From IMG/VR virus record IMGVR_UViG_3300045988_155859: 48,404 bases of DNA; one strand, given 5' to 3'. This stretch comes from a virus. Lineage: Duplodnaviria > Heunggongvirae > Uroviricota > Caudoviricetes. This document shows positions 1,246-46,491 of this stretch, one piece after another. The position numbers were made by a program, and so were the translations under genes. Each line of letters begins with the position of its first letter. Positions within the stretch are counted from its first letter, which is position 1. The notes beneath the pieces were generated by a model. It worked only from the letters and a program-made list of their open reading frames with translations, made no database searches and was not told the origin of the DNA.

Positions 1246-1410
1246 GGTGATAGTTCCCTTAAAGGTTAAGGATACTCACCACCGTCTGGTTCCAATCATT
1301 GGGTGGTGAGACGTACAGGGTTGGAACTACCGGTCACCATGGAATCCGGCGAGTCTTACGACTCCCCCGCACGCCCCACCATAATTTGGGTGTAGCAGTG
1401 CTTTACGCAT

Positions 1411-1430
1411 AAAAAAACCGCTAACGCGGT
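1411..1430 (-). terminator. Candidate intrinsic terminator (minus strand)
   Basis: Minus-strand hairpin ACCGC-GTTA-GCGGT followed by TTTTTTT; short stem. Confidence 0.35.
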
Positions 1431-1577
1431 ATGCGCCATGATGATTATCGGGGTTCCAATCCCGACCGTAGATTTTGCTACGGCTCGGAAAGTGTCCACC
1501 AATGGCGCATTCATGTCAATACGGCGGGATTTTAACAGAGATAACCACATAGCGTGGGTTTATTGGTAGGCAGAAAC

Positions 1578-1602: not shown

Positions 1603-2001
1603 TTCTTTCGTGCTGATCGGATTCGCGGTCCTTTCAGCATAACGTCGTTGTATAAACAACCACGCAAGCACAAGCAGCAAGTTAATTTTACCCAAAAGGT
1701 AATAATAGTCCACTATTATGCTTCAAAAAATTGTGGTTCTTGTTGTGCCTGCAAACTCACAGATTGTGGGTAGGTTACTGATTTTGTGAAAATAAACGAG
1801 TTTTTTCGTTTAATTTCTTTCCTATTACTAATCTTAAAATAATCGTAAAATACCTGTGGACCTTCCCGCCGATTCGCACCCGGGCACCGACTTTAGGGGA
1901 GGATTCTCCGTTGCCGTACATGCAAGCACAAGCAGCCGTGCTTGCTCTCGCGTTGTTTTCGTCGGTGGGGATGCCGTGAAACGGCCTGTAAGGGCCATAC
2001 A

Positions 2002-2124
2002 ATGAAAAAATACTGTATGTGTATTTTTATCGTTGTTACTGGGGCTTTGTTTACGCCACATGGGGAGGGTTGGAAGATTACTGATAACGCTCTGAATGTG
2101 ACGATAAACATTAGCAGCAAGTAG
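2002..2124 (+). CDS. Candidate small hydrophobic peptide (40 aa)
   Basis: MKKYCMCIFIVVTGALF... hydrophobic N-terminus, with a strong terminator immediately downstream; no recognisable family. Confidence 0.2.
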   Translation: MKKYCMCIFIVVTGALFTPHGEGWKITDNALNVTINISSK

Positions 2125-2129
2125 CGATT

Positions 2130-2153
2130 AGGCCCCTTCGGGGGCCTTTTTTA
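2130..2153 (+). terminator. Intrinsic terminator
   Basis: Perfect hairpin AGGCCCC-TTCG-GGGGCCT followed by TTTTTT. Confidence 0.7.
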
Positions 2154-2665: not shown

Positions 2666-3319
2666 TTACGCGGCAGTAGTCAGAGCCTCAAGCTGGTTGA
2701 TAATCCCCTGAATAACGTCGTCTGCCTTTTTGCGTGGCGCAACGTATGAGCATTCAATGAGGCTTAAGCCCTTATCCTGAGCTTTGCTCAGAGCTGGCTT
2801 GTGGGGAATGTACTTATCGACAACAAAGTATGGCGTATTAGCTAGGTACTCTTGGGCTTCAATGTAGTCGGCTTCGTTTTCAGCCGCGCCTGAGAACACC
2901 ATGCAAATTTTCTTGATTGGCACACCCTTTTTAACGATGCCGTGAGCTGTGTTAACGGTGGTTTCTAGGTCATCGGTAGAGAATCTGGTTGGCAAAATAA
3001 CCATATCCAGAAATTCAGAGAGCTTCGGTACTGATTCAGATGCGTAGGCACCGCCATCGACGATAACCAGGTCGTATACTTCTGATTCGATGATTTTCTG
3101 GACTTGTGATGGCGTGCCGCACGGCTGCGCCGCGATTGCAGGTTCGATATTGTTGGCCATTCTGCGTTGTACCCAACGCGTTACCGTTCCGTTAAGCACA
3201 TCCATATCGATCAGGCATACATTCCAGCCGGCCTTTGCATAAGCAACTGCTAAAGCACGGGCAATTGTTGATTTGGTTACGCCGCCTTTTCCGTTGAAAA
3301 TACCTACAGAGATAGTCAT
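2666..3319 (-). CDS. parF: ParF-like small ParA-family partition ATPase
   Basis: Deviant Walker A GKGGVTKST near the N-terminus and a length of about 217 aa. The second ATG (3319) has a GGAG RBS; the ORF track start at 3334 does not. Confidence 0.8.
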   Translation of the reverse strand: MTISVGIFNGKGGVTKSTIARALAVAYAKAGWNVCLIDMDVLNGTVTRWVQRRMANNIEPAIAAQPCGTPSQVQKIIESEVYDLVIVDGGAYASESVPKLSEFLDMVILPTRFSTDDLETTVNTAHGIVKKGVPIKKICMVFSGAAENEADYIEAQEYLANTPYFVVDKYIPHKPALSKAQDKGLSLIECSYVAPRKKADDVIQGIINQLEALTTAA

Positions 3320-3340
3320 TTGTCGAGACTCCATGTGTTT

Positions 3341-3444
3341 GGTTATATAATTCTATAAATCTATATTTATAGAACGAGGTAAGCATAACCAACTTTTTGG
3401 CGGATGAAAAGCGTTTTATATAATTATATAAATCTATAATCATG
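3341..3444. repeat. AT-rich iterated motif cluster upstream of parF (candidate centromere/operator)
   Basis: Two blocks, TATATAATTCTATAAATCTATATTTATAGA and TTTTATATAATTATATAAATCTATAATCA, immediately upstream of the parF start. Confidence 0.55.
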
Positions 3445-4593: not shown

Positions 4594-4630
4594 GTCTCAT
4601 CAATCGTGAATGGTGGGTTATTTATACATT

Positions 4631-4645
4631 ACCACATTTAGTGGT
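4631..4645. promoter_or_regulatory. Operator ACCACATTTAGTGGT
   Basis: ACCAC-N5-GTGGT dyad in the cI-cro intergenic region. Confidence 0.6.
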
Positions 4646-4712
4646 TTTCACATGGTAAGACGAGAGGTGGACCACAAATAGAAGGTTATTTTTTGTTTCG
4701 CCCATTGAAAAA

Positions 4713-4727
4713 CTCACGATATGTGGT
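4713..4727. promoter_or_regulatory. Weaker operator-like site CTCACGATATGTGGT
   Basis: Right half-site TGTGGT conserved, left half degenerate. Confidence 0.4.
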
Positions 4728-4734
4728 TTTAATA

Positions 4735-4749
4735 CCACATATCGTGGTT
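4735..4749. promoter_or_regulatory. Operator ACCACATATCGTGGT
   Basis: ACCAC-N5-GTGGT dyad just upstream of the Cro-like gene RBS. Confidence 0.6.
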
Positions 4750-4767
4750 TTAACTGGAGTTCGTTAA

Positions 4768-6740: not shown

Positions 6741-7118
6741 GTGAGACGCGATCTGGATAGCTTGTTTGAGCTATGGGCGCTGTGGGTGCGCAATGGCTGC
6801 AACGCCCGTAGCGGTTTCGCGTCGATGTTAGAAATGATGATGGTTACGCGCTGCCAGTTTACCGGAGGGGGCGGCGCACCAAATGACTCACTGGAAACCA
6901 GTATAGAGGGAGCGGTGACGGCCCTCACGGTAGTTGATGAGACTGCGGCGCTGGTTGTCCGAATTGAATACGGGGCGTGGGAGATTCGGGGCCTCGACAT
7001 AAATGCACCGCATATTGATAAAGCCCACGCCCTTTCTCTTAGCCTCAGACAGTATCGCCGGAAGCTGGCAAAAGCCAGGGCGTATGTTGTCGACTATTTG
7101 AAAAAGCGAAGAGAGTAA
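6741..7118 (+). CDS. Possible Q-like antiterminator or late-gene regulator
   Basis: GTG-start 125-aa ORF at the end of the early-right operon, immediately upstream of a repeated promoter/leader cassette (the syntenic position of Q in lambdoid phages); sequence similarity itself is weak. Confidence 0.3.
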   Translation: MRRDLDSLFELWALWVRNGCNARSGFASMLEMMMVTRCQFTGGGGAPNDSLETSIEGAVTALTVVDETAALVVRIEYGAWEIRGLDINAPHIDKAHALSLSLRQYRRKLAKARAYVVDYLKKRRE

Positions 7119-7170
7119 AAGTGTCATTTTGAGCTGTTTTGATGGTGTGTAGACATCGGGAACATCGAAA

Positions 7171-7287
7171 ATCTATAAATATATAATTATAGATTTATAT
7201 AAAAAGTGCTTTACAGGTGGGAAAAAATTTCCTAAGGTTATACCCGAAACCGAGCGATACCCGCCCTGGTTAAACCGGAGAAATCTG
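7171..7287 (+). promoter_or_regulatory. Repeated promoter/5'-leader cassette, copy A
   Basis: ATATAATTATAGATTTATATAAAAAG-GCTTTACAGGTGGGAAAAAATTTCCTAAGGTTATACCCGAAACCGAGCGATACCCGCCCTGGTTAAACCGGAG then ATG; near-identical to 14708-14818 and 45995-46110. Contains TTTACA (candidate -35) and GGAG RBS. Confidence 0.5.
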
Positions 7288-8355
7288 ATGAATAAACAAG
7301 TAATTATTTCTGACTGGATCAACAACCCTAACAGCCTGTTAAGCACTGATACTGGCTACCTATTACGCCATGTTAATGGTCGTATGGTCAAAAGCGATGA
7401 GCACGAAACCTTTTTCTTTGTTGAAGACGATGGGCGTATCTATGAGGATGGTTACTCTTATGAAGCCCAAACTGGTTGTATCCCTGCGGAGCTGGTGGAT
7501 GTAACAGAAGATCTGCGCAAAGCATGGCTTGAACAGCAGCAGCGCGGAGATGATTACGTAAACACCTATCAGGAACGCCAGAACGCGCGTCTTGCCCGAT
7601 ATATTGCTCGTGCAGAAAAAGCCAGAAAAGAAGGTGCGGTAGCGCATAAGCGAGCGCATGACCTGTTGGATGTGATCCCGTTAGGCCAGCCGATTTTAGT
7701 TGACCATTATAGCGCGAAAGGCCATCGCCGCCGTTTGTCTAAAGCTGATGCGTTATTCAGAAAAGCGTTTGTTGAATGCGAAAGTAAAGCATCACACTAC
7801 GAGAGCAAAGCCGCAGGTGTTGGTCGTAATGGAATTTCGTCTGATGATCCTGATGCGCTATTTAAGTTGCTTCGTAAGCTGCAAGGCTGCATGAAGTCAC
7901 ACGTCAAAATGAAGGCCGCAAATAAGGCCATTCGCAAATACAAAAAAGACCAAATACAGCAGCTTTCTGCATTAATCGATCTCAGGTTTACAGAAAGCGA
8001 AGCCAAAGAGTTACTGGCCGGAGATTTCTGTGGGCGCATCGGATTCCCTTCATACGCACTGAGCAACAATAACGCCGAAATCAAACGACTACAGAGCCGT
8101 ATTAAGGAGCTTGAATCGGTCAAGTCTGTAACAGGAGCACAGCGCGAAGAATACGACGGCTTTTCTATGGAGATAGATCCAGAGGATAACCGCATCCTGT
8201 TTTATTTCCCTGGCAAACCAGAGGCAAACATTCGTTCGCTGCTTAAATCACGCGCCTTTAAGTGGAGTCCAACCCGTAATGCATGGGTTCGCAAGATTAC
8301 TCCAAACGCCCTGGCTGATGCCCGATATCTGAAAGAATCGCTATTGAAAGCCTGA
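7288..8355 (+). CDS. DUF3560-like protein
   Basis: 355 aa with GQPILVDHYSAKGHRRR motif, which I associate with DUF3560; first gene downstream of cassette copy A. Confidence 0.45.
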   Translation: MNKQVIISDWINNPNSLLSTDTGYLLRHVNGRMVKSDEHETFFFVEDDGRIYEDGYSYEAQTGCIPAELVDVTEDLRKAWLEQQQRGDDYVNTYQERQNARLARYIARAEKARKEGAVAHKRAHDLLDVIPLGQPILVDHYSAKGHRRRLSKADALFRKAFVECESKASHYESKAAGVGRNGISSDDPDALFKLLRKLQGCMKSHVKMKAANKAIRKYKKDQIQQLSALIDLRFTESEAKELLAGDFCGRIGFPSYALSNNNAEIKRLQSRIKELESVKSVTGAQREEYDGFSMEIDPEDNRILFYFPGKPEANIRSLLKSRAFKWSPTRNAWVRKITPNALADARYLKESLLKA

Positions 8356-8387
8356 CAGTAAGCCTACGGCGGGATGTCTCCCGCCGT

Positions 8388-8411
8388 ATATAGAATTATA
8401 TATTTATATAA
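8388..8411. repeat. AT-rich motif cluster (ATAGAATTATATATTTATATAAATG)
   Basis: Same TATA-rich motif family, upstream of the 8412 ORF. Confidence 0.45.
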
Positions 8412-8714
8412 ATGTATAAGGACGCCTCGACAATGAAACGCAAAATTATTAACCCCCAAGATGTGATTAATTTCCTGACCGATCACCCATGTTCAAAAGT
8501 GGACGTAATCGCGGAGCACATTGGTGTGTCGCAGAACTCTATGCGTTGCAGACTGAGAAGCATGGTTGCCGAAGGACAGATAACAACCAGGAAAATAAAT
8601 GGTTGCCTGTACTACTCCGCTAAACCGGAATTGCCATTTGGCATGAATCCTAACTCCATGTTGTTTAACACCTTATTAGCCAAAGTTAAGCCGTTGAGAG
8701 GGGCTGTGGCATGA
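8412..8714 (+). CDS. Putative winged-helix DNA-binding protein
   Basis: 100-aa ORF with VDVIAEHIGVSQNSMRCRLRSMVAEGQI helix-turn-helix-like segment; true start may be the internal Met at 8433. Confidence 0.4.
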   Translation: MYKDASTMKRKIINPQDVINFLTDHPCSKVDVIAEHIGVSQNSMRCRLRSMVAEGQITTRKINGCLYYSAKPELPFGMNPNSMLFNTLLAKVKPLRGAVA

Positions 8715-11770: not shown

Positions 11771-11914
11771 GTATTGTTTTTTTATTGATCGATTAACCAC
11801 ATTTTGAAGGTTTTTTTATGGGGAAACCTTGTTTTAGGTGGTAACTGGGTGTAGTGTTTCATTTAACGTAGTAAAACTGCGTTAAGCGATTACCGCGTAA
11901 TTTGTTGCTTTATG

Positions 11915-11947
11915 AAGCCCTGCCTTTTTCGGCGGGGCTTTTTTTTT
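11915..11947 (+). terminator. Intrinsic terminator immediately upstream of the lysis cassette
   Basis: GAAGCCCTGCC-TTTTTC-GGCGGGGCTT hairpin followed by a run of 9 T; the holin ATG is 14 nt downstream. Confidence 0.7.
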
Positions 11948-13443: not shown

Positions 13444-13567
13444 TACCGCCTGTGATTGGGTAAAGCCCATCTACCTGACTGATCACGACATCGATGTTAT
13501 GGACCGCCAGACAAAGAAAGATATTCTGGCTCATAACAGGGCATGGGAAATCAACTGCCGAAAGTAA
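13358..13567 (+). CDS. Rz1-like outer-membrane lipoprotein spanin, overlapping Rz in another frame
   Basis: Lipoprotein-type signal with lipobox-like LIASC; starts inside the Rz gene and extends beyond it. Confidence 0.55.
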   Translation: MYSRVLTIWLMTMLIASCGSRGSVPVVVDTACDWVKPIYLTDHDIDVMDRQTKKDILAHNRAWEINCRK

Positions 13568-13600
13568 TATATATTTCTATAATTATATAAATATATAGTT
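13563..13600. repeat. AT-rich motif cluster (TATATATTTCTATAATTATATAAATATATAG)
   Basis: Same TATA-rich motif family, downstream of the lysis cassette. Confidence 0.45.
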
Positions 13601-13736
13601 ACAACATTCTATGCGCTTTTCTCATGGGCGCACGCATCAACCATGTTTGTCTGATATGCCGCCGCGCCCAAAAATCCTGAATTTATTGGCTGGGATTTTC
13701 GTGCGCGGCGCCACACCAGACAAACAAATCAAATAT

Positions 13737-13812
13737 GGCCCCTTAGCTTAGTGGTTAGAGCAGGCGACTCATAATCGCACGGTCATCGGTTCAAATCCGG
13801 TAGGGGCCACCA
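13737..13812 (+). tRNA. tRNA with anticodon CAU (Met, or Ile if lysidine-modified)
   Basis: 76 nt folding by hand into a cloverleaf: 7-bp acceptor stem (GGCCCCT/AGGGGCC), D-arm GCTT...GAGC, anticodon loop CTCATAA, T-loop TTCAAAT, encoded CCA end. Confidence 0.8.
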
Positions 13813-14119
13813 ATTCACCCTCACACATAAAGATAAGCGCGGTGGAGTTACTTCTTCGTGCTCATCTTTATGCGTGCCTGGTGCGCATTTCGGGCGAACG
13901 TGGGGCTAAGTTACAGGCAGGGCCTGTTATCCGCAAAGGGGTAAAAGCTGGAGCGGCACGGAACTGTAGCCGTGTTACCAAAACAGCGCTGTCGGGCGAT
14001 ATCCGGCACACAACAGGCAAGGGCATTAATCAGTCTGGTTAGTGCCCTTTTCGTTGTGTCTGCTGTAGAGCTGGTCAGCGTTATGACTGCCGGAGATAAG
14101 CGCCGGAGGCACAACTAAC

Positions 14120-14707
14120 ATGGAGGCAATTGCATTGTTTAATCTGATTTATGCAGATCCCCCCTGGGAATACAAAGATAAGTGTAAGGATGGGAATCGT
14201 GGAGCTGGTTTTAAGTATCCAACGATGAAAGCTGAGGATATTGCTCGTATTCCTGTCTGGCAGCTTGCTAATCCTGAATCGTGTTTGTTGGCCATGTGGT
14301 GGGTTCCGACTCAGCCAGAAGAAGCGTTGCTGGTGGTGAAAGCATGGGGATTCAGGCTTATGACCATGAAGGGCTTCACATGGAACAAATGTGGTAGCCG
14401 ACAACCAGATAAGCTGGTGATGGGGATGGGGCATATGACTCGTGCAAACAGTGAAGATTGCTTGTTTGCGGTAAAAGGCAAATTGCCGACCCGCCTTGAT
14501 GCGGGGATCATTCAGTCGTTTACATCGCCTCGTCTGGAGCATTCTCGGAAGCCTGATGTGGTTCGTGACAAGCTGGTAAGGCTGTTAGGTGATGTTCCTC
14601 GTATTGAGCTGTTTGCTCGCGGTGATTTACCTGATGGTTGGCATGGCTGGGGCAACCAGTGCAATGGAGGTATCCAGTTGCATGATGCTCTCTGGCAAGT
14701 GGCATAG
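14120..14707 (+). CDS. MT-A70-family DNA N6-adenine methyltransferase
   Basis: IYADPPWEY (DPPW catalytic motif) near the N-terminus; 195 aa. Confidence 0.8.
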   Translation: MEAIALFNLIYADPPWEYKDKCKDGNRGAGFKYPTMKAEDIARIPVWQLANPESCLLAMWWVPTQPEEALLVVKAWGFRLMTMKGFTWNKCGSRQPDKLVMGMGHMTRANSEDCLFAVKGKLPTRLDAGIIQSFTSPRLEHSRKPDVVRDKLVRLLGDVPRIELFARGDLPDGWHGWGNQCNGGIQLHDALWQVA

Positions 14708-14818
14708 AATTATATAATTATAGATTTATATAAAAAGCGCTTTACAGGTGGGAAAAAATTTCCTAAGGTTATACCCGAAACCGAGCGATACCCGCCCTGG
14801 TTAAACCGGAGAAATCTG
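14708..14818 (+). promoter_or_regulatory. Repeated promoter/5'-leader cassette, copy B
   Basis: Near-identical to copies A and C; begins directly after the methyltransferase stop and ends at the 14819 ATG. Confidence 0.5.
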
Positions 14819-15088
14819 ATGAAAGTACAAGACCGTGAAGTAGTAAAAAACCTCCTGCAATACCTGACCTCAAAAAACCTGACGGGCAGCGTTGAGTTCC
14901 GTGAAGCGTTAAAACATTTCAACGTCACTACGGTTTATCGTTGGGAAAACAAACATTCTGAAAGACCGTATGTGGTGGATGTTTTTGCGCCTGATATTGA
15001 GTGCGGTTTTGAGCGTCATTCGTTCAAGGAGAAACATTCTGCTGATTTTTTTTGTGAGGTTGTATGTGCGGCAGGAGATGATGAGTGA
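14819..15088 (+). CDS. Hypothetical protein
   Basis: 89-aa ORF directly downstream of cassette copy B. Confidence 0.4.
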   Translation: MKVQDREVVKNLLQYLTSKNLTGSVEFREALKHFNVTTVYRWENKHSERPYVVDVFAPDIECGFERHSFKEKHSADFFCEVVCAAGDDE

Positions 15089-15285: not shown

Positions 15286-15308
15286 ACCGTAACGATAACG
15301 AACAACGA

Positions 15309-15334
15309 GCCTCGGCAATTGCCGGGGCTTTTTT
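15309..15334 (+). terminator. Intrinsic terminator
   Basis: GCCTCGGC-AATT-GCCGGGGC hairpin followed by TTTTTT. Confidence 0.6.
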
Positions 15335-31276: not shown

Positions 31277-34069
31277 ATGGCCAGCAATAAGAACTTTAAG
31301 CTGGCTTTTGAAATTGGCGGCAAAGTTGCCGCCTCTCTCCCCAAAAGTTTTACTACAGCTAATCAGGCTGTTGCTAAATTAAATGCAGAGCTTGCTGGAT
31401 TAACGAAAGAACATGGGGAAATTCAAAAGCTACAATCTGTAAAAGTAAAGGTTGGACAGACTGCCCTCGAATATCATAAAGCTGCCGCTCGCGTTGAAGA
31501 GTTACAGAAGCAAATAAAAAACACGGCCAATCCAACCAGAGCGATGCTTCGTGACTTTGAGAAGGCAAAAACACATTCATCAAATTTACGAGCATCACTA
31601 CGTTCTCAGCGTGAAGAACTGGCCGCTTTAAAGTCTGCCTATCAGGGAGCTGATACATCTGCCAGAGCTTTGGCCTCAAGAGAGAAAGAGCTTAAAGCCA
31701 GCATTGATCGTAATCGTGAGGCTCAGGCCCGTAGCGTTGAGCAGGTTAACCGCTACAGAACGGCTTTGGCTTTAGCCAGAGCAAATGTTCAGCAAGTGAA
31801 AAAACAGCAGGAGGAACTTAACCGGGCATTAGAAAAACAACGTATTGATAAAATTAACAGCTATAAAAATGCGTTGGCTGAAGCACGGAAAAATGTTCTT
31901 GCAGTAAAACGTGCTCAGGAGGAGTTAAACCGCGCGTTGGAAAGGCAGCGTGAATTGAAGCGAGAGCATCTTGGTGAGGCAAAGAGTCAACTTGTAAGGT
32001 CAGGATTACAAACTGGTGCTGTAGCGGCTGGTGCATTTGCTGCTGCTAACAATGCAGCAAATTTCAATCGTGAAAACAAAATGATTGGTCTTACGGCAGA
32101 TATGAAGCCGGAAGAAGTTCAGGCGATGGGGCAGGCGATGCTTGTTACCGGAACGGCTACCAACCAGTTTGCATCTGATATTCAGGCCGCTCAGGGTTTT
32201 CTCGTCGCTGCTGGGCAGGATTATAAAGAGGCTCAGGCGAATCTACTAACTATTGGGCGAACAGCTACAGCTACTGGCTCTGATATCCTCGATGTCTCGA
32301 AAGCATCATTTACATTAAGTGACTCATTGAAGATTGATCCATCTCAAATGAAGTCTGCAATGGGGATTCTGGTTCAGGCAGGGAAAGAGGGGAACTTTGA
32401 ATTTAAAGATATGGCCAAAAATCTTCCTGTGCTTGGTGCTCAGTTCCAGGCATTAAAAATGGGAGGTAAAGAAGCAGCCGCGACGATGGGTGCAGCTTTG
32501 CAGATAGCTCGCAAGGGGGCTGCAACTTCGGATGAGGCTGCTAATAATATGAACAACTTTTTGGCAAAAATACTTTCCCCTGAAACACTAAAAAAAGCAA
32601 AGAAAAATTTCGGTGTAGATTTATATAAAATTGTTACAACAGCGCAGAAAAAAGGGAAGAATCCATTCGAAGCTGCAATGCATTCTGTCATGAAAATGAC
32701 TAAGAACGGAGATCAGAAGTTACTTGGTGAACTATTTGGCGATATGCAGGTTCAGAACTTTGTTCGTCCGATGATTCAAAACTGGAAGGAATACCAGAGA
32801 ATCAAAGCAACATCTCTTGGAGCTGGAAGTGCTGTTATTGACCGCGATTTTGCCAACATAACGAAAGATAATGCGGAGCGATTGAAACAATTACGTATTC
32901 AGGCTAGCAATGCATCATTAAGTTTTGGTCAGGCCTTGCAACCTGCTTTGAATGCCGCGCTTAGTGTTTTGGTTCCGCTGATTACAAAAATTAGTGAATT
33001 TGTAGCTAACAACCCCAATTTTGTGTCTCAGATAGTGATGGCGGCAGGTGCGTTTCTAACCATGAAAAGTGTGGTTATAGCGTGTAGGGTAGCTATGCTG
33101 GCTTTATCTGTAGCGACAAAGCTAACACCCTTCGGGTGGATTCAGATGGCTATATCTGCGCTGGTTGCCGCAGGAATATTGCTCTATCAGAATTGGGATA
33201 AGATCAGAGATTATGCTGTCAGAGTTTGGCCTTCTGTTAAGGAATATACAGTTAAATCATTTGAGGCTATAAAAAACTTTATCTTAAACTTTGACCTCAA
33301 TGGATGGATTATATCTATGTTTGGTAAAGCATGGGATTATCTTTCCAACATAAACTGGAGTTCGGCAGGAGTAAGAATTTACAGTACATTAATTAGTGCT
33401 TTTAAATGGATGTCTCCGCTTCCGTTCTTAATTAAAGCATTTAAAATTACAACAAATTACCTTTCTGGCATTAACTGGAGCGAAACAGGAAAGAAAATCA
33501 TAGATACACTGGTATCTGTTTTTATGCGTTTTTCACCAGTTGGACTCTTTATAAGAGCATTCCAATCTGTAACGACTTATTTATCTGGAATAAACTGGAG
33601 TGAGTCAGGCGCAAAAATAATTGAGACGTTAATCACTGGGATAAAATCAAAAGCAAATGCTTTAATTAATGAAGTGAAAGGCGTTTTTTCTTCTGTACGT
33701 GAGTATTTACCGTTCTCTGACGCGAAAAAAGGTCCATTCTCACAGCTAACAAAGTCAGGTGGTGCAATAATGACTACTCTGGCATCAGGTGTTAGCAGGA
33801 ATAACAGCTTACAGAATGCAATAGCAAGCAAGTTCGGGCAATCAAATTTATCACCTCACGGGATATCTGCCGCTGGGACTTCTGGACCTCGCCAGAACGT
33901 TAACGCTGTGACTGGTGGAATAACCTATTCACCTGTAATCAATCTTCCGGCTGGTTCACCAAAGGAAACTGAGGCGGCAGCTAAAAGAGCATTAGATGCG
34001 GGATATTCTGATTTTGAGAAGAAATTGAGTGCTCATATGTTCCAACAACGGAGATTAAGTTTTGGATGA
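31277..34069 (+). CDS. Tail tape measure protein
   Basis: 930 aa; coiled-coil-rich N-terminal third with repeated QEELNRALE segments, central hydrophobic stretch, position after the chaperone pair. Confidence 0.85.
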   Translation: MASNKNFKLAFEIGGKVAASLPKSFTTANQAVAKLNAELAGLTKEHGEIQKLQSVKVKVGQTALEYHKAAARVEELQKQIKNTANPTRAMLRDFEKAKTHSSNLRASLRSQREELAALKSAYQGADTSARALASREKELKASIDRNREAQARSVEQVNRYRTALALARANVQQVKKQQEELNRALEKQRIDKINSYKNALAEARKNVLAVKRAQEELNRALERQRELKREHLGEAKSQLVRSGLQTGAVAAGAFAAANNAANFNRENKMIGLTADMKPEEVQAMGQAMLVTGTATNQFASDIQAAQGFLVAAGQDYKEAQANLLTIGRTATATGSDILDVSKASFTLSDSLKIDPSQMKSAMGILVQAGKEGNFEFKDMAKNLPVLGAQFQALKMGGKEAAATMGAALQIARKGAATSDEAANNMNNFLAKILSPETLKKAKKNFGVDLYKIVTTAQKKGKNPFEAAMHSVMKMTKNGDQKLLGELFGDMQVQNFVRPMIQNWKEYQRIKATSLGAGSAVIDRDFANITKDNAERLKQLRIQASNASLSFGQALQPALNAALSVLVPLITKISEFVANNPNFVSQIVMAAGAFLTMKSVVIACRVAMLALSVATKLTPFGWIQMAISALVAAGILLYQNWDKIRDYAVRVWPSVKEYTVKSFEAIKNFILNFDLNGWIISMFGKAWDYLSNINWSSAGVRIYSTLISAFKWMSPLPFLIKAFKITTNYLSGINWSETGKKIIDTLVSVFMRFSPVGLFIRAFQSVTTYLSGINWSESGAKIIETLITGIKSKANALINEVKGVFSSVREYLPFSDAKKGPFSQLTKSGGAIMTTLASGVSRNNSLQNAIASKFGQSNLSPHGISAAGTSGPRQNVNAVTGGITYSPVINLPAGSPKETEAAAKRALDAGYSDFEKKLSAHMFQQRRLSFG

Positions 34070-38400: not shown

Positions 38401-41247
38401 GTGAGTAAATTATTATTTACGATGACTGACGCCGGGCGTAAGGCGCTGGTTAATGCCAACAAGACTGGAACAAATAAAGTTGAGATCGTTTCTGTTGGTT
38501 TAGGTAGTAGATATTATGCCACATCAACCACACAAACAAAAATAACAGATGAAATAAAGCGACTTACCACAATAGGAGGCAAAGTCGTTTCTCCTGATAC
38601 CATTCATGTAACTGCGAAGGATGATAGTAAAGATGAGTATGTTGTCCATACAATAGGTTTGTATACAAATAAAGGAACATTGTTTGCTGTATACTCGCAA
38701 GAACAAGTAATAATAAATAAAGCATCTTCTACAATTGCTTTAATATCAAGTGATATAGCAATTAAAAATCTTGATACTAAAAACATTACATTTGGTGATG
38801 TTGAGTTTATTAACCCTCCCGCAACCGAAACTGTTGTTGGAGTAGCAAGATTTGCTAATGAACAAGAAATTGATGCAGGTACAGATGATTCCCTGGCTGT
38901 TTCAGCAAAGCGGCTTAAGCAAGCTATTGTAAAACATGAGCAATCACGTAATCATCCTGATGCAACTTTAACATCAAAAGGCATTGTTCAACTCAGTAAT
39001 GCCACCAATAGCACGTCTGAAAAGCTCGCAGCGACGCCTAAGGCTGTTAAGGCTGCATATGACCTGGCTAACGCTAAATACACCGCACAGGACGCTACCA
39101 CGGCGCGAAAAGGGATTGTTCAGCTCAGTAGTGCCACTAACAGTACGTCTGAAACGCAGGCGGCAACGCCAAAAGCGGTCAAGGCAGCAAATGACAACGC
39201 AAATTCACGTCTGGCGAAAAATCAGAACGGTGCAGATATCCAGGATAAATCAGCTTTTCTGGACAATGTTGGCGTTACCAGCCTGACGTTTATGAAAAAC
39301 AATGGCGAAATGCCGCTTGATGCTGATCTGAATACGTTTGGTCCTGTTAAGGCTTATTCAGGTATCTGGTCTAAAGCAACATCCACCAACGCAACACTGG
39401 AGAAAAATTTCCCGGAAGATAATGCTGTCGGTGTGCTTGAGGTTTTTGCTGCCGGCAATTTTGCAGGTACGCAACGCTTTACCACGAGAGACGGCAATGT
39501 ATACATGCGTAAACTCGCCAATAAGTGGAATGGCACTGATGGTCCGTGGGGCGTATGGCGTCACACTCAATCTGCTACCCGCCCTTTGAGTACGACTATA
39601 GACCTGAATACGCTTGGAGCCGCCGAGCATCTTGGTTTATGGCGTAACAGTAGCTCAGCTATAGCTTCATATGAACGCAATTATCCAGAGGAAGGCGGCT
39701 TTGCTCAGGGGATGCTTGAGATCCTCGAAGGCGGAAATTATGGAAGAACGCAACGTTATACCACTCGCCGTGGAAATATGTATGTCCGCTGTCTTGCGGC
39801 AAGCTGGGATGCATCAAATCCGCAGTGGGAACCGTGGTTAAGAGTCGGTCATCAGTCAGAGAGTCGTTATTACGACGGTGATTTGAATGATGTAACCTCA
39901 CCAGGTATTTACAGCGTTACAGGTAAAGCGACCAACGGTCCAATACTGGACGGAAACGGCGTGACAGTCCTCGGTATTCTGGAGGTGTTGAGGCGCTTTG
40001 ATGGTGTTAATGTATGGCAGCGTTATACAACTGCCGGAACAGGTACAACCCTTAAAGGCCGCACCTTTGAGCGCGTCTTTACCGGCAGCTCATGGAGCGA
40101 ATGGCGGGAAGTCTACACCTCGTATTCACTTCCCCTGAATCTGGGTATCGGCGGTGCTGTGGCAAAGCTCACCAGCCTGGACTGGCAGACCTACGATTTT
40201 GTGCCGGGCAGTCTGATAACCGTTCGGCTTGATAACATGACCAATATTCCCGACGGTATGGACTGGGGCGTCATTGATGGCAACCTGATAAACATCTCAG
40301 TCGGTCCGAGTGATGATTCTGGTTCGGGACGCTCAATGCATGTATGGCGCAGCACTGTAAGTAAAGCCAACTACCGCTTTTTTATGGTTCGCATTTCAGG
40401 AAATCCGGGAAGCCGCACGATCACGACAAGACGTGTGCCAATTATCGACGAAGCTCAGACATGGATGGCGAAACAGACATTCAGCGGTGGTCTTTCAGGC
40501 GAACTATCCGGCAATGCTGCTACAGCAACAAAGCTGAAAACGGCAAGGACAATTAACGGCGTAAAATTTGACGGCTCGGCAAATATTGAAGCGTTTCCGC
40601 CAGGTGTTCCGCTGCCGTGGCCATCAGATACGCCACCTGCAGGTTATGCAATCATGCTGGGGCAGACGTTTGATAAGGCAGCATATCCGAAACTGGCTAT
40701 TGCCTATCCTTCTGGTGTTATTCCAGATATGCGCGGCTGGACAATCAAGGGCAAACCCGCCAGTGGTCGGGCCGTATTGTCTCAGGAACAGGATGGCATT
40801 AAATCGCACACCCACAGTGCCAGCGCATCCAATACGGATTTGGGTACGAAAACCACATCGTCGTTTGATTACGGTACTAAATCAACGAATAACACAGGTG
40901 CACATACCCATAATGTATCTGGTACTGCAAATAGTGCTGGCGCACATACTCATACCGTTCCATTAAGGAGACCAAACAGTGGCGGTATGAATTTCGACTG
41001 GCTGGATGGTTCATCAAGTGGCACGGTGGTGGGGAATGGAACTGTGCCTTCTTCTGGCGCACATACCCACTCAGTATCAGGTACCGCTACAAGTGCTGGG
41101 GCACATGCACACACTGTTGGTATTGGCGCTCATACGCACTCTGTTGCGATTGGTTCACATGGACACACCATCACCGTTAACGCTGCTGGTAACGCGGAAA
41201 ACACCGTTAAAAACATCGCATTTAATTATATTGTGAGGCTTGCATAA
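38401..41247 (+). CDS. Tail fibre protein
   Basis: GTG start; 948 aa; tandem KGIVQLS(N/S)ATNSTSE...[10 protein letters not shown] repeats; C-terminal His-rich GAHTHxV repeats; followed by the assembly chaperone. Confidence 0.8.
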
Positions 41248-41864
41248 TGGCATTCAGAATGAGTGAACAATCACGTACCGTAAAAATTTATAACCTGCTG
41301 GCCGGAACTAATGAGTTTATTGGTGAAGGTGACGCATATATTCCACCTCATACAGGGCTGCCAGCTAATTCTACAGATATCGCCCCACCGGAAATTCCTG
41401 CTGGCTTTGTGGCAGTTTTTAACAGTGAAAATGAATCGTGGAATATTGTTGAAGACCATCGTGGTAAAACGGTCTATGACGTGGCGTCGGGGGACGCATT
41501 GTTTATTTCTGAACTCGGACCGCTACCAGAGAATGTCACCTGGTTGTCGCCAGCAGGGGAGTATCAGAAGTGGGACGGCGTATCCTGGGTGAATGATGAG
41601 GAAGCAGAAAAACTGTTTCGGATACGGGAAGCGGAAGAGAAAAAGGCAAGGTTGATCCAGGAAGCAACAGATAACATCGCAATTCTGCAGGATGCAGTTA
41701 ATCTTGAAATAGCAACAAACGAGGAAAATTCACAACTGGATTCCTGGAGAAAATACAGAGTATTAGTGAGTAGAATTGACACCAGTACAGCTCCGGATAT
41801 CGTATGGCCAGAGCTGATGAATCAGGGTTATGTTCGGGAGGACGAGCAGATAACTTCAGACTGA
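41247..41864 (+). CDS. Tail fibre assembly chaperone (Tfa-like)
   Basis: 205 aa with the C-terminal ...[24 protein letters not shown] motif typical of Tfa proteins. Confidence 0.7.
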
Positions 41865-42391
41865 AATTTAGTGATGAATGTTGAATCATCAGGAATATCA
41901 TGCAATACCAATGCATGAGCACCTATTGTGACATTGTTTCCTATACGCACTTTGCCACCAAGAATGGTGGCATTACAACCAATGGTCACATTATGCCCTA
42001 TAACAATATCCATATCATTAAATTCCCCGCGAAGTCCAATAGTTACTCCGGGCTTAATTGAACAATTTTCACCGATTGTTACTTTGTGACCGATAACAAC
42101 ACTGTTGAGATAAGAAATATCAAAGCCTTTCCCTATATTTACAGTTAAAGGGACTGTTACATTATATTTATCAAGAATGAAACGTTCTATTTTTCCCGCA
42201 ATCTTCCGACAGTATCCGCCTTTATCAAAAAGGTATTTGGCTATGCGCCACCAAAATAAATAACGAACCCTTCTATGTTTTATTGCGCGAACAATTGCCT
42301 TTTGCCAGGAGAAAGGACGCTCGCTACCGATTACTTCATAGTGAATACAGTCTTTAAGTTCATTAATATTCATATCTTTATTATTCAGCAT
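41828..42391 (-). CDS. Hexapeptide-repeat acyltransferase (left-handed beta-helix family), candidate lysogenic-conversion gene
   Basis: Repeated [LIV]-G-x-x-x-x hexads ([23 protein letters not shown]...[34 protein letters not shown]); convergent with Tfa and overlapping its 3' end by 37 bp. Confidence 0.7.
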
Positions 42392-43988: not shown

Positions 43989-44481
43989 GTTCTGATATAT
44001 ATATGCAAATGGTTTTTTATAATAGATGCACTAAACAAATAAATGCAAAATCACTTTCTTTTATTAAGACTTTCTTTATTTAACTTACGCAGGCTTTGCC
44101 TGTGAATATGTTCGCCCTTGCAGCGAGCTAAAGCTCGCGCCGGTTCGAGTCGCTACGCTCAAATATACCTCCTCCGGCACTTGCCGGAGGCATGGAGCAG
44201 CCTGATCATCCTTTTCGAAACGGCACGTTTCGAACTATACAAAATCAATTTATATAAGGCCGAAATAAGGCCTACGGCCGGGCTTTGCAGGAGGAAGGGG
44301 CGAGCCTTATCAATAAACGTCGATAAATACGCACACAGTAGCCATCAGAACGCGATAAAATGTAAGAAACATCATTTCCTATTAGACATAGAAAACTTGT
44401 CTTATACGCAATGTAGTAAATTTCTATTGCCACATAGGAAAAGATTTCCTACCATCGTAGATATAATAAATGGAGATGGTT

Positions 44482-44769
44482 ATGGATAAAGATACTGTTT
44501 TAAAAATGTTGAATCCGGCTTGTTTAAAAAAAGCGGATGAATGGGAATCTCCTACATGTGGAGAAGTTCGGGCAGTCATTGGCCTGACCGGAATGAGCGG
44601 CTCGCAGTTAGCCAAAAAACTAGGCTTAAAAGATAGTCGCAATGTTCGCAACTGGCAGATGTTAAAGGAGTCCACATCCAGATCCAGCATTCCGTATGCA
44701 GCCTGGGCGCTGCTGTGTTACTTCGCTGGGTTAGGGTTAATCTTCATTGATAACAAAACAGATGTTTGA
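44482..44769 (+). CDS. Putative HTH DNA-binding protein with a hydrophobic C-terminus
   Basis: ...VRAVIGLTGMSGSQLAKKLGLKDSRNVRNWQ...; start at the third ATG, which has a GGAG RBS. Confidence 0.4.
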   Translation: MDKDTVLKMLNPACLKKADEWESPTCGEVRAVIGLTGMSGSQLAKKLGLKDSRNVRNWQMLKESTSRSSIPYAAWALLCYFAGLGLIFIDNKTDV

Positions 44770-45994: not shown

Positions 45995-46110
45995 ATAGAA
46001 TTATATAATTATAGATTTATATAAAAAGTGCTTTACAGGTGGGAAAAAATTTCCTAAGGTTATACCCGAAACCGAGCGATACCCGCCCTGGTTAAACCGG
46101 AGATAACCCG
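45995..46110 (+). promoter_or_regulatory. Repeated promoter/5'-leader cassette, copy C
   Basis: Near-identical to copies A and B over about 100 bp; differs only in the last 10 nt before the ATG. Confidence 0.5.
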
Positions 46111-46491
46111 ATGAGCATGATTAAAATCCGCAAAAACGCTTTCCTTAAAATTCAAACTATCCTGGCTGGTTCTGTTGGCGTGATTTGCCGTTCTTCTTCA
46201 AGCCGCATCGATGACGGCTACGATGATGAGTATCGTTTGTCCTCGTGCGATGAGGCTTTAACCTGGCTGAAGGAGAATCAGGAACGTGCCCAGGTATATC
46301 TGGAAACAGAGAACGGCAATCAGATGCTCCGTATTAGCGGTCGTTATGGATTTGAAACCACATTCATGGCCTATTTTAATCAGGCTTACTTTGACAAGGA
46401 GTTGGCCTGGTACACTGATCGCATGAGCAAAAGCGAGCCAGCCCCGATTACACCGCCGAACGATAAACCATTTTTATTCCTCGTTAAGTAA
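46111..46491 (+). CDS. Hypothetical protein
   Basis: 126-aa ORF directly downstream of cassette copy C. Confidence 0.45.
   Translation: MSMIKIRKNAFLKIQTILAGSVGVICRSSSSRIDDGYDDEYRLSSCDEALTWLKENQERAQVYLETENGNQMLRISGRYGFETTFMAYFNQAYFDKELAWYTDRMSKSEPAPITPPNDKPFLFLVK

Follow-up and report, generated by a model that had tools for sequence, protein, structure and literature searches.

A triplicated promoter-leader module with two proposed operator types in a phage-plasmid of the Escherichia coli ATCC 25922 plasmid family

Partition-protein sites scattered over a replicon, including the regions of non-partition genes, are a feature of the RK2 partition and Kor proteins and of the phage-plasmid N15, for which four inverted repeat (IR) sites were confirmed. 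Among ribbon-helix-helix (RHH) partition proteins, the boxes of ParG follow an 8-bp period, some direct and some inverted, and each box takes one dimer (PMC3130281). The arrays of omega consist of at least four contiguous repeats and overlap three promoters of pSM19035 (PMC9499535), with activation at partial occupancy and repression at full occupancy (PMC4627068). Aca proteins repress acr promoters as dimers, through inverted repeats that extend over the -35 and -10 elements, and Aca11 was reported to control two operons with near-identical promoters (PMC12658196; PMC9638941). In this study, we analysed the viral record IMGVR_UViG_3300045988_155859, a stretch of 48,404 nucleotides (nt) that is called the window throughout, and a cassette of some 120 bp that stands before three of its operons. 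The plasmid of E. coli ATCC 25922 (48.5 kb) and the Yersinia phages vB_YpM_39/41/44 were near-identical to the window (48.4 kb), which is a myovirus-type phage-plasmid of the ATCC 25922 plasmid family.

The cassette is a triplicated promoter-leader module with two proposed operator types, and it is real and functional. Each copy would constitute a complete, portable operon start module made up of an array of 8-bp repeats, a promoter with a palindrome, a leader with a hairpin, and a ribosome site. Judged from the sequence, this start module is probably controlled jointly by an RHH partition protein and an Aca-like repressor, with the 5' hairpin acting at the RNA level, a reading to which we assign a probability of roughly 0.55. 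The module combines known mechanisms, and its arrangement was not found in the searchable literature; literature searches on this plasmid family or on DUF3560 gave nothing bearing on the cassette.

Three copies of one cassette

The copies and their parts are listed below, with open reading frames (ORFs) and the lengths of their products in amino acids (aa).

7168-7290, + strand: cassette copy A, from array to ATG, before the DUF3560 gene 7288-8355
7168-7207: array of copy A, four tandem 8-bp units ATCTATAA ATATATAA TTATAGAT TTATATAA, proposed RHH sites
7210-7215, + strand: -35 hexamer TTTACA of copy A
7216-7232, + strand: spacer of copy A, 17 bp
7219-7234: palindrome GGGAAAAAATTTCCTA of copy A, in the 17-bp spacer with its right arm overlapping the -10, proposed operator of a 95-aa protein
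7233-7238, + strand: -10 hexamer TAAGGT of copy A
7239-7247, + strand: gap of 9 nt from -10 to hairpin, copy A
7248-7271, + strand: two-step hairpin AACC..GCG-ATACC-CGC..GGTT of copy A, near the leader 5' end
7277-7280 and 7288-7290, + strand: Shine-Dalgarno (SD) sequence GGAG of copy A, 7 nt before the ATG, and the ATG
14704-14821, + strand: cassette copy B, before the 89-aa ORF 14819-15088; array 14704-14737, -35 14741-14746, palindrome 14750-14765, -10 14764-14769, hairpin 14779-14802, SD 14808-14811
45995-46113, + strand: cassette copy C, before the 126-aa ORF 46111-46491; array 45995-46029, -35 46032-46037, palindrome 46041-46056, -10 46055-46060, hairpin 46070-46093, SD 46099-46102

A repeat finder returned one family of three direct copies (7174-7300, 14705-14831 and 45996-46122), which MAFFT aligned as a single identical block from the AT-rich tract through CCGGAGA, the sole substitution being T7208 (copies A and C) versus C (copy B). 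Over the 83-nt core, identity within the window was 100% for A versus C and 98.8% for A versus B. An earlier note, made from the letters of this DNA alone, had described three near-identical copies of a promoter/leader cassette, each ending at a start codon, and this was confirmed, with all copies facing the same direction; they begin, however, ~10 bp further upstream than it gave. The TTTACA hexamer it named was found in place, as were the neighbours it listed, namely the 125-aa ORF 6741-7118 before copy A, an MT-A70 methyltransferase gene (14120-14707) before copy B, and a RelE/helix-turn-helix (HTH) pair with a terminator hairpin upstream of copy C. Other parts of that description needed revision. 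What it took for an AT-rich dyad is an AT-rich tract (7168-7207), but one built as a tandem array of 8-bp units; the GGAAA-AAA-TTTCC element is present at 7220-7232, but in the spacer DNA of the promoter and outside the transcript; and the leader does end in CCGGAG (7275-7280) ahead of the ATG, but it measures ~42 nt from the predicted start and not 60.

The cassette was present in 74 complete E. coli genomes, at a median of three places per genome and almost always on plasmids, and within the collections searched it was also found in three Yersinia phage isolates. Salmonella relatives likewise carried three copies at the same three positions. The cassette was ~90% identical between E. coli and Salmonella versus 50-74% for the flanks, copies within one genome were 93-100% identical, and 8-9 substitutions were fixed across all three copies; the cassette is therefore constrained and, in addition, homogenised by recombination. 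A coding role was ruled out, as the one open frame on the + strand of copy A lacks a start codon and is shifted by indels of 1 nt in copy C and in Salmonella, and such indels between copies and between lineages disrupt every frame. Homology between the copies ended one to three codons inside each ORF, and the upstream flanks were unrelated. The three downstream ORFs were mutually unrelated as well; 7288-8355 encodes a DUF3560 protein, the 89-aa and 126-aa ORFs have no assigned function, and a PDB sequence search of the downstream products gave no significant match and no solved Acr.

The comparison of promoters took in ~30 copies of five or more lineages, found in E. coli, Salmonella, Serratia and Yersinia and among metagenomic relatives. 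The -10 occurred as TAAGGT, TATGGT, TAGTGT, TATTGT, TAGTAT, TAATAT, TATTCT, TATTAT and TATAAT, with the variation confined to positions 3-5 and T1, A2 and T6 constant. The spacer measured 17-18 bp in all lineages, and the -35 was kept as TTTACA or (C)TTGCA. At the level of sequence, this conservation pattern is the signature of a sigma-70 promoter, and transcription starts were predicted at 7245-7247 (A), 14776-14778 (B) and 46067-46069 (C).

Arrays of 8-bp repeats and the parA-RHH pair

The arrays outside the cassettes lie around the partition genes and at two further places.

2374-2622, - strand: 82-aa ParG/omega-like protein, encoded after parA, candidate array binder
2635-2668: array between parA and the RHH gene
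2666-3319, - strand: small Walker-type ParA (RefSeq start 3319; first ATG 3334)
3343-3371: array in the parA 5' untranslated region
3382-3443, - strand: parA promoter with a cassette-like layout (array 3413-3443; -35 TTTTCA 3410-3405; 17-bp spacer; -10 TATGCT 3387-3382)
8386-8419: array upstream of ORF 8433-8714, against its ribosome site
13561-13601: array ~135 bp upstream of the tRNA-Ile gene 13737-13809

With a threshold of at least 26/28 A/T, the window contained exactly 8 very AT-rich tracts, versus 0.4 expected and a maximum of 3 in shuffled sequences. All eight were composed of four to five units of TTATATAA or TTATAGAT in direct and inverted orientation with an 8-bp periodicity, and identity at lag 8 was 0.68 versus 0.22-0.56 at other lags. 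Three of the eight stand in the cassettes, and another three flank parA and the RHH gene (2635-2668, 3343-3371 and 3413-3443).

We infer that the eight arrays are the sites of the plasmid's own 82-aa RHH partition protein; the assignment draws on the co-occurrence of arrays with the parA-RHH pair, on covariation between repeat unit and protein residue, and on published RHH partition proteins. The 82-aa protein has a disordered basic N-terminal tail followed by a beta-alpha-alpha C-terminus that is a predicted RHH domain, and its AlphaFold2 (AF2) model likewise gave a disordered tail and then two confident helices. Pfam RHH_10 was matched by 18 of the 46 members of its family. The family profile matched ParG (1p94) weakly over the RHH part, with an E value of 0.77 that is far below significance, and no similarity to omega was detectable in a PDB sequence search. 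Arrays surrounded the parA-RHH pair not only in Serratia phage-plasmids, myovirus-type as well as siphovirus-type, but also in two conjugative plasmids with a type IV secretion system (T4SS), NZ_CP037908 and pCTU2. What the siphovirus-type and conjugative array-bearing plasmids have in common with the window is limited to two proteins, ParA (~45% identical) and the RHH protein (~43%). In all, about 100 plasmids carry the partition module.

The repeat type also tracked one residue of the predicted beta-strand of the RHH protein across ~14 loci, a diversity drawn from viral contigs and exact-protein look-ups, a contig search with the RHH alignment having given one locus. Where this residue was Q (eight loci; strands AQMAFNV, AQMSFNV, AQLNLYV/I, KQLLFRL, KQLLLRL and KQLLLQL), the units were of the TATA type, with a TATA/TAAA ratio of 1.6-2.7. 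Where it was A, P or L (six loci), the units were of the TTAAATAA type, with a ratio of at most 0.10.

A simpler explanation would be a plain, strong constitutive promoter copied by recombination, in which no protein binds the palindrome and the AT tract is just bent DNA or an UP element. AT-rich DNA is common upstream of promoters, a stretch right before the -35, TAAAAAGTG, looks like the consensus of the proximal UP element, and recombination would keep the copies alike with or without regulator binding. However, the array unit switched along with the RHH protein between lineages of closely related hosts, and arrays were also located where no promoter can follow, in the gap between parA and the RHH gene and against ribosome sites. 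The palindrome arms, moreover, were conserved and recurred at an otherwise unrelated fourth promoter. A constitutive promoter of this kind is improbable.

Other candidate array binders were considered. The HTH antitoxin of the toxin-antitoxin pair was rejected, as pCTU2 has arrays yet no homologue of the window's pair. The 125-aa protein, a candidate since Q21 binds 8-bp direct repeats, was rejected because the conjugative plasmid L008 has arrays and no homologue of it. Host nucleoid proteins are unlikely array readers, as the unit type varies between plasmids of related hosts.

Arrays also formed part of a second repeated start module, in which GGA(G/T)NCTCGACA(A)ATG comes immediately after an 8-bp array (window 3319-3371, - strand, and 8386-8435, + strand). 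This module is common to parA and the 93-aa ORF 8433-8714, its array abuts the ribosome site and not a promoter, and it was the same in L002, L004, L005, L006, L007, L024, L028 and L029, being kept from E. coli to Serratia and also among metagenomic relatives. In conjugative plasmids, TATA-type arrays also stood just upstream of ribosome sites within the type IV secretion operon and ahead of a nuclease-like gene (L008 11983-12017 and 13750-13795; L033 3228-3257 and 18639-18678), a placement that suggests plasmid-wide RHH targets. In two distant phage-plasmids (L025 9264-9400 and L027 8863-8945), arrays abut the -10 (TATATT or TATAGT) without a palindrome. Finally, conjugative plasmids carrying cfr (L003/L008, NZ_CP037908, 1444-1491, and two other E. 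coli plasmids of 27.7 kb) contained the first 47-48 nt of the cassette at 100% identity, that is, the array and the -35, close to an IS26 copy. These plasmids also have the RelE/HTH pair (96% identical), and together the two segments point to recent exchange between phage-plasmids and conjugative plasmids.

Spacer palindrome, leader hairpin and candidate regulators

The features needed for the palindrome and for its possible readers are as follows.

44427-44455, + strand: fourth palindrome promoter, without an array (-35 TTGCCA; 17-bp spacer with TAGGAAAAGATTTCCTA at 44435-44451; -10 TACCAT)
44482-44769, + strand: gene of the 95-aa protein, adjoining repA, 1.2-11 kb from the cassettes
6741-7118, + strand: 125-aa protein with a predicted sigma-region-4/Q21-like fold, directly upstream of copy A
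15307-15330, + strand: strong terminator-like hairpin downstream of copy B
11914-11941, 14019-14049 and 16006-26, + strand: further strong terminator-like hairpins

The palindrome core had four matches in the window versus 0.76 expected, three of them in the cassettes and the fourth in the promoter spacer of the 95-aa gene, a location kept in L020 and in two Serratia plasmids as well as in E. coli and Salmonella. One half-site variant was common to all four palindromes of a given genome, TTCCTA in E. coli and Salmonella and GTCCTA in Serratia. The 95-aa protein matched the C-terminal HTH domain of AcrIF24 (E 1.4e-5) and Aca3 (E 0.016). In L025 and L027, there was no 95-aa gene near repA and there were no palindromes, yet the 125-aa homologue was kept, a distribution that points away from the 125-aa protein as palindrome binder. 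The CI repressor was rejected in that role, as the operators at cI and the early operon have the form ACCAC-N5-GTGGT and are unrelated to the palindrome. On the strength of the fourth palindrome, the shared half-sites, the AcrIF24 and Aca3 matches, the L025/L027 distribution and the distinct CI operators, the Aca-like 95-aa protein is the best candidate, and we propose that the palindrome is the operator of this putative HTH repressor. Such a repressor would place the three operons under burst-then-shut-off control.

Several ACCAC-N5-GTGGT palindromes lie at 4594-4767 (e.g., 4710-4751), between the CI-like repressor gene and the early operon. They are likely CI operators, and the operator sequences differ in the Serratia relatives.

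The 125-aa protein was weighed separately, as part of a Q-type late promoter or loading site. By this explanation, a Q21/AlpA-like antiterminator would bind the cassette at the palindrome or nearby DNA, ride RNA polymerase and let it read through the terminators between copies A and B and the lysis and structural genes, which is compatible with joint control by the RHH and Aca-like proteins. The gene order, regulator and then promoter, matches the described Q-PR' cassette. Two observations keep the loading role live as a rival: copies A and B are separated from the lysis and structural genes by strong terminator-like hairpins on the + strand (11914, 14019, 15307 and 16006), and the ~26-kb structural operon has neither an array nor a palindrome ahead of it. 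In L025, moreover, an array-type promoter downstream of the 125-aa homologue is followed ~55 nt later by a strong intrinsic terminator, a PR'-tR'-like layout. Against this stand the lack of a conserved -10-like pause element (TAnnnT) between the -10 and the ribosome site, where the candidate hexamer keeps A2 and not T6, and the lack of a terminator directly after the promoter, as the hairpins after copies A and B come only past at least one gene and copy C has none. Copy C drives a single gene that faces a convergent one, and the fourth palindrome is at a plasmid-maintenance gene. L025 and L027 have 125-aa homologues (59-60% identical) and no palindromes. The sigma-region-4 fold is generic for DNA binding, and the 125-aa ORF had no Pfam or PDB sequence match and no sequence-level match to any Q protein. 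We regard a Q-type loading role as possible but doubtful, and retain the Aca-like protein as the proposed reader of the palindrome.

The third part of the module is the leader. It is ~42 nt long, its hairpin begins 2-4 nt from the predicted 5' end, and the distance from -10 to hairpin is constant at 9-10 nt. Folded as single sequences, the E. coli, Salmonella and L024 leaders gave the same two-step hairpin. Across 13 distinct leaders, in a hand-made, gap-free alignment fitted to the structure, all 91 of 91 cells (seven pairs) were standard pairs, compared with only 15-46% pairing in slid controls; four pairs changed on both sides, and one position showed GC, CG, AU and GU. The G-U wobbles speak for selection on the RNA itself. 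The loop bases were not conserved except for the first A. An automatic analysis with MAFFT and RNAalifold mis-registered the inner helix and gave weak support. The simplest role for the hairpin would be protection of the mRNA 5' end, as 5'-terminal stem-loops in E. coli mRNAs are known to protect it.

Small RNAs encoded in the window were taken from a whole-window Rfam scan at gathering threshold, which returned C4, isrK, ryfA and one tRNA only, all outside the cassettes.

1299-1386 (- strand), 1411-1484 (- strand) and 1856-2152 (+ strand): Rfam matches to C4 antisense RNA, isrK and ryfA, above the gathering score

The leader itself could be the regulatory part, as an attenuator, riboswitch, small-RNA target or protein-binding site. 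The compensatory and wobble changes in the hairpin agree with this, AAACCGGAGA after the hairpin was near-invariant in E. coli, Salmonella and Serratia, and Aca2 was reported to bind RNA besides DNA (PMC12658196). However, the leader contains no terminator and its hairpin has neither a U-tract nor an alternative pairing; Rfam covariance models over 7100-7400 gave no match even at E<=10; and duplex energies with the resident C4, isrK and ryfA were no better than those of shuffled leaders. The unconserved loop argues against a sequence-specific loop reader, and one Yersinia lineage (L031) replaced the leader and kept the promoter. A leader that carries the regulation by itself is very unlikely. 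The earlier note had offered two candidates, a regulator-dependent promoter with its site or a structured leader acting as an attenuator or small-RNA target, and had advised folding the leader and looking for covariation. The promoter, the apparent regulator sites and the conserved leader structure with its compensatory changes were found; the attenuator and the small-RNA target were not upheld.

Proposed control and comparison with known systems

In the proposed mechanism, the RHH protein would coat arrays at eight places, its own parA promoter included, so that the level of partition protein could feed into three operons, with repression at full array occupancy and possibly recruitment at partial occupancy. 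The arrays may double as dispersed centromere sites. The 95-aa repressor would bind the spacer palindrome and give the burst-then-shut-off pattern typical of acr promoters after DNA entry, and the leader hairpin would act on the RNA level, most simply by shielding the mRNA 5' end. Because all copies share the same control, the three separate operons would be switched together, and recombination between the copies would keep them alike.

Several observations weigh against this joint control. The -10 is weak (3/6 consensus matches) and a generic promoter scan of the window did not report the cassette site, which together suggest that an activator may be needed. The hand-fitted hairpin alignment leans towards the structure, the stability of the hairpin is modest (-9.9 kcal/mol, z -2.6), and lineage L031, which keeps array, promoter and palindrome, has a different leader. 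Two loci had an intermediate array composition (ratios of 0.5 in L021 and 1.0 in L023). The 95-aa protein had no Pfam match, and its gene lies outside the operons of proposed control, unlike those of typical Aca proteins. The protein-site assignments rest on co-occurrence and covariation among roughly five to nine lineages. As the three downstream genes have no known function, an anti-defence role is speculative.

If joint control holds, this study provides the first regulatory map of the family, with co-firing promoters and two small controlling proteins, for a cassette carried by the phage-plasmid of many E. coli, including the quality-control strain ATCC 25922. Global control of the omega type would then reach into enterobacterial phage-plasmids and, beyond them, into the two conjugative plasmids studied, in which the parA-RHH pair and arrays are also present. 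The Aca-type operator would be a signpost to three operons without assigned function as candidates for anti-defence or establishment, and the cassette would represent a small expression unit, complete in itself, with two operator inputs that are independent of each other. A broader and more tentative proposal is that the enterobacterial phage-plasmid superfamily and the pCTU2-type conjugative plasmids analysed run a replicon-wide "entry regulon" under two small repressors, in which the three operons are new anti-defence or establishment genes and their promoters could also be loading points for a Q21-like antiterminator. In that case, the RHH protein would act via dispersed 8-bp arrays doubling as centromeres and a trans-encoded Aca-like protein via the palindrome, while the antiterminator could open the lysis and structural genes. 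The cassette would then flag DUF3560 and the genes following it, the 89-aa ORF and the 126-aa ORF, and a single 120-bp module would bring together plasmid segregation, evasion of defence and the lytic switch.

Among the genes of the window were those for an IncFII-type RepA, the small ParA and a CI-like repressor, along with an immunity region of the P1-like c4/ant kind and a long operon, directed rightward, that contains early, lysis and structural genes. The C4, isrK and ryfA matches adjoin an ORF6N/Rha antirepressor-like gene (47-1057, - strand), and the region looks like a P1-type c4/ant immunity system, although the phage-plasmid is non-P1. The tRNA-Ile gene 13737-13809 lies between the lysis genes and the methyltransferase gene, with the 8-bp array before it and the terminator-like hairpin 14019-14049 after it. 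The tape-measure gene (31277-34069) contained a 42-nt motif three times at an exact 120-nt spacing (33337-33618), which suggests an internal repeat of 40 codons. The region of the tail fibre and fibre assembly (41247-42391) differed from that of the ATCC 25922 plasmid (L001 10150-12887), where it is flanked by a recombinase-family gene and the assembly genes are oppositely oriented, an arrangement typical of an invertible host-range segment.

Among known systems with scattered partition sites, the RK2 and N15 proteins are large, of HTH ParB type, and act at single palindromic sites, whereas the window has a predicted RHH protein and repeat arrays. The Lpa-type late promoters of P1 have a -10 and a palindrome near -22. 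In the lambdoid Q/PR' systems (Q21 and AlpA), a small sigma-region-4-like protein is encoded immediately upstream of a promoter that precedes late genes behind intrinsic terminators; in the window, the candidate counterparts are the 125-aa protein with its predicted fold, copy A and the terminator-like hairpins. Unlike those systems, the window has no conserved sigma-dependent pause element or promoter-proximal terminator and has three copies, not one, and the arms of its palindrome are inverted, in contrast to the Q21 site, which consists of two 8-bp subsites repeated directly.

The cassette promoter resembles the Aca systems (AcrIF24 HTH, Aca3, Aca7 and Aca11) in that an inverted repeat spans the spacer between -35 and -10 of a promoter with 17-bp spacing and recurs at the regulator's own promoter, and the 95-aa protein matches the AcrIF24 HTH domain and Aca3 by sequence. 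It differs in that the regulator is not in the controlled operons, Aca11 being the precedent for a second operon, in that there are three extra promoters and not one, with an RHH array added upstream, and in that the controlled genes have no assigned function and none matches a solved Acr by sequence.

The partition side is closest to ParG/parH-OF of TP228 and to omega/parS of pSM19035. As in ParG, the gene of the 82-aa protein follows that of a small ParA, and its product is predicted to join a flexible N-terminal tail to an RHH domain at the C-terminus. ParG boxes combine a 4-bp box and a 4-bp AT spacer in mixed orientation and form an operator array at the par promoter (PMC3130281), and the window likewise has an 8-bp period. 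Its repeat is, however, unrelated to ACTC, and its eight arrays are dispersed, whereas TP228 has one cluster upstream of parFG. With omega, the window shares a small partition protein, here of predicted RHH type, whose gene accompanies that of a small ParA, arrays of at least four contiguous short repeats in direct and inverted orientation, and several arrays per replicon at the promoters of different operons, including the par genes. Unlike the 7-bp WATCACW repeats of omega, those of the window are 8 bp long and almost pure AT (TTATATAA); the cassette arrays lie upstream of the -35 and not over the core promoter, and the host replicon is an enterobacterial phage-plasmid, in contrast to the Firmicute plasmid of omega. 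Omega links partition to global transcription control (PMC9499535, PMC4627068), and the same link is proposed here for the window.

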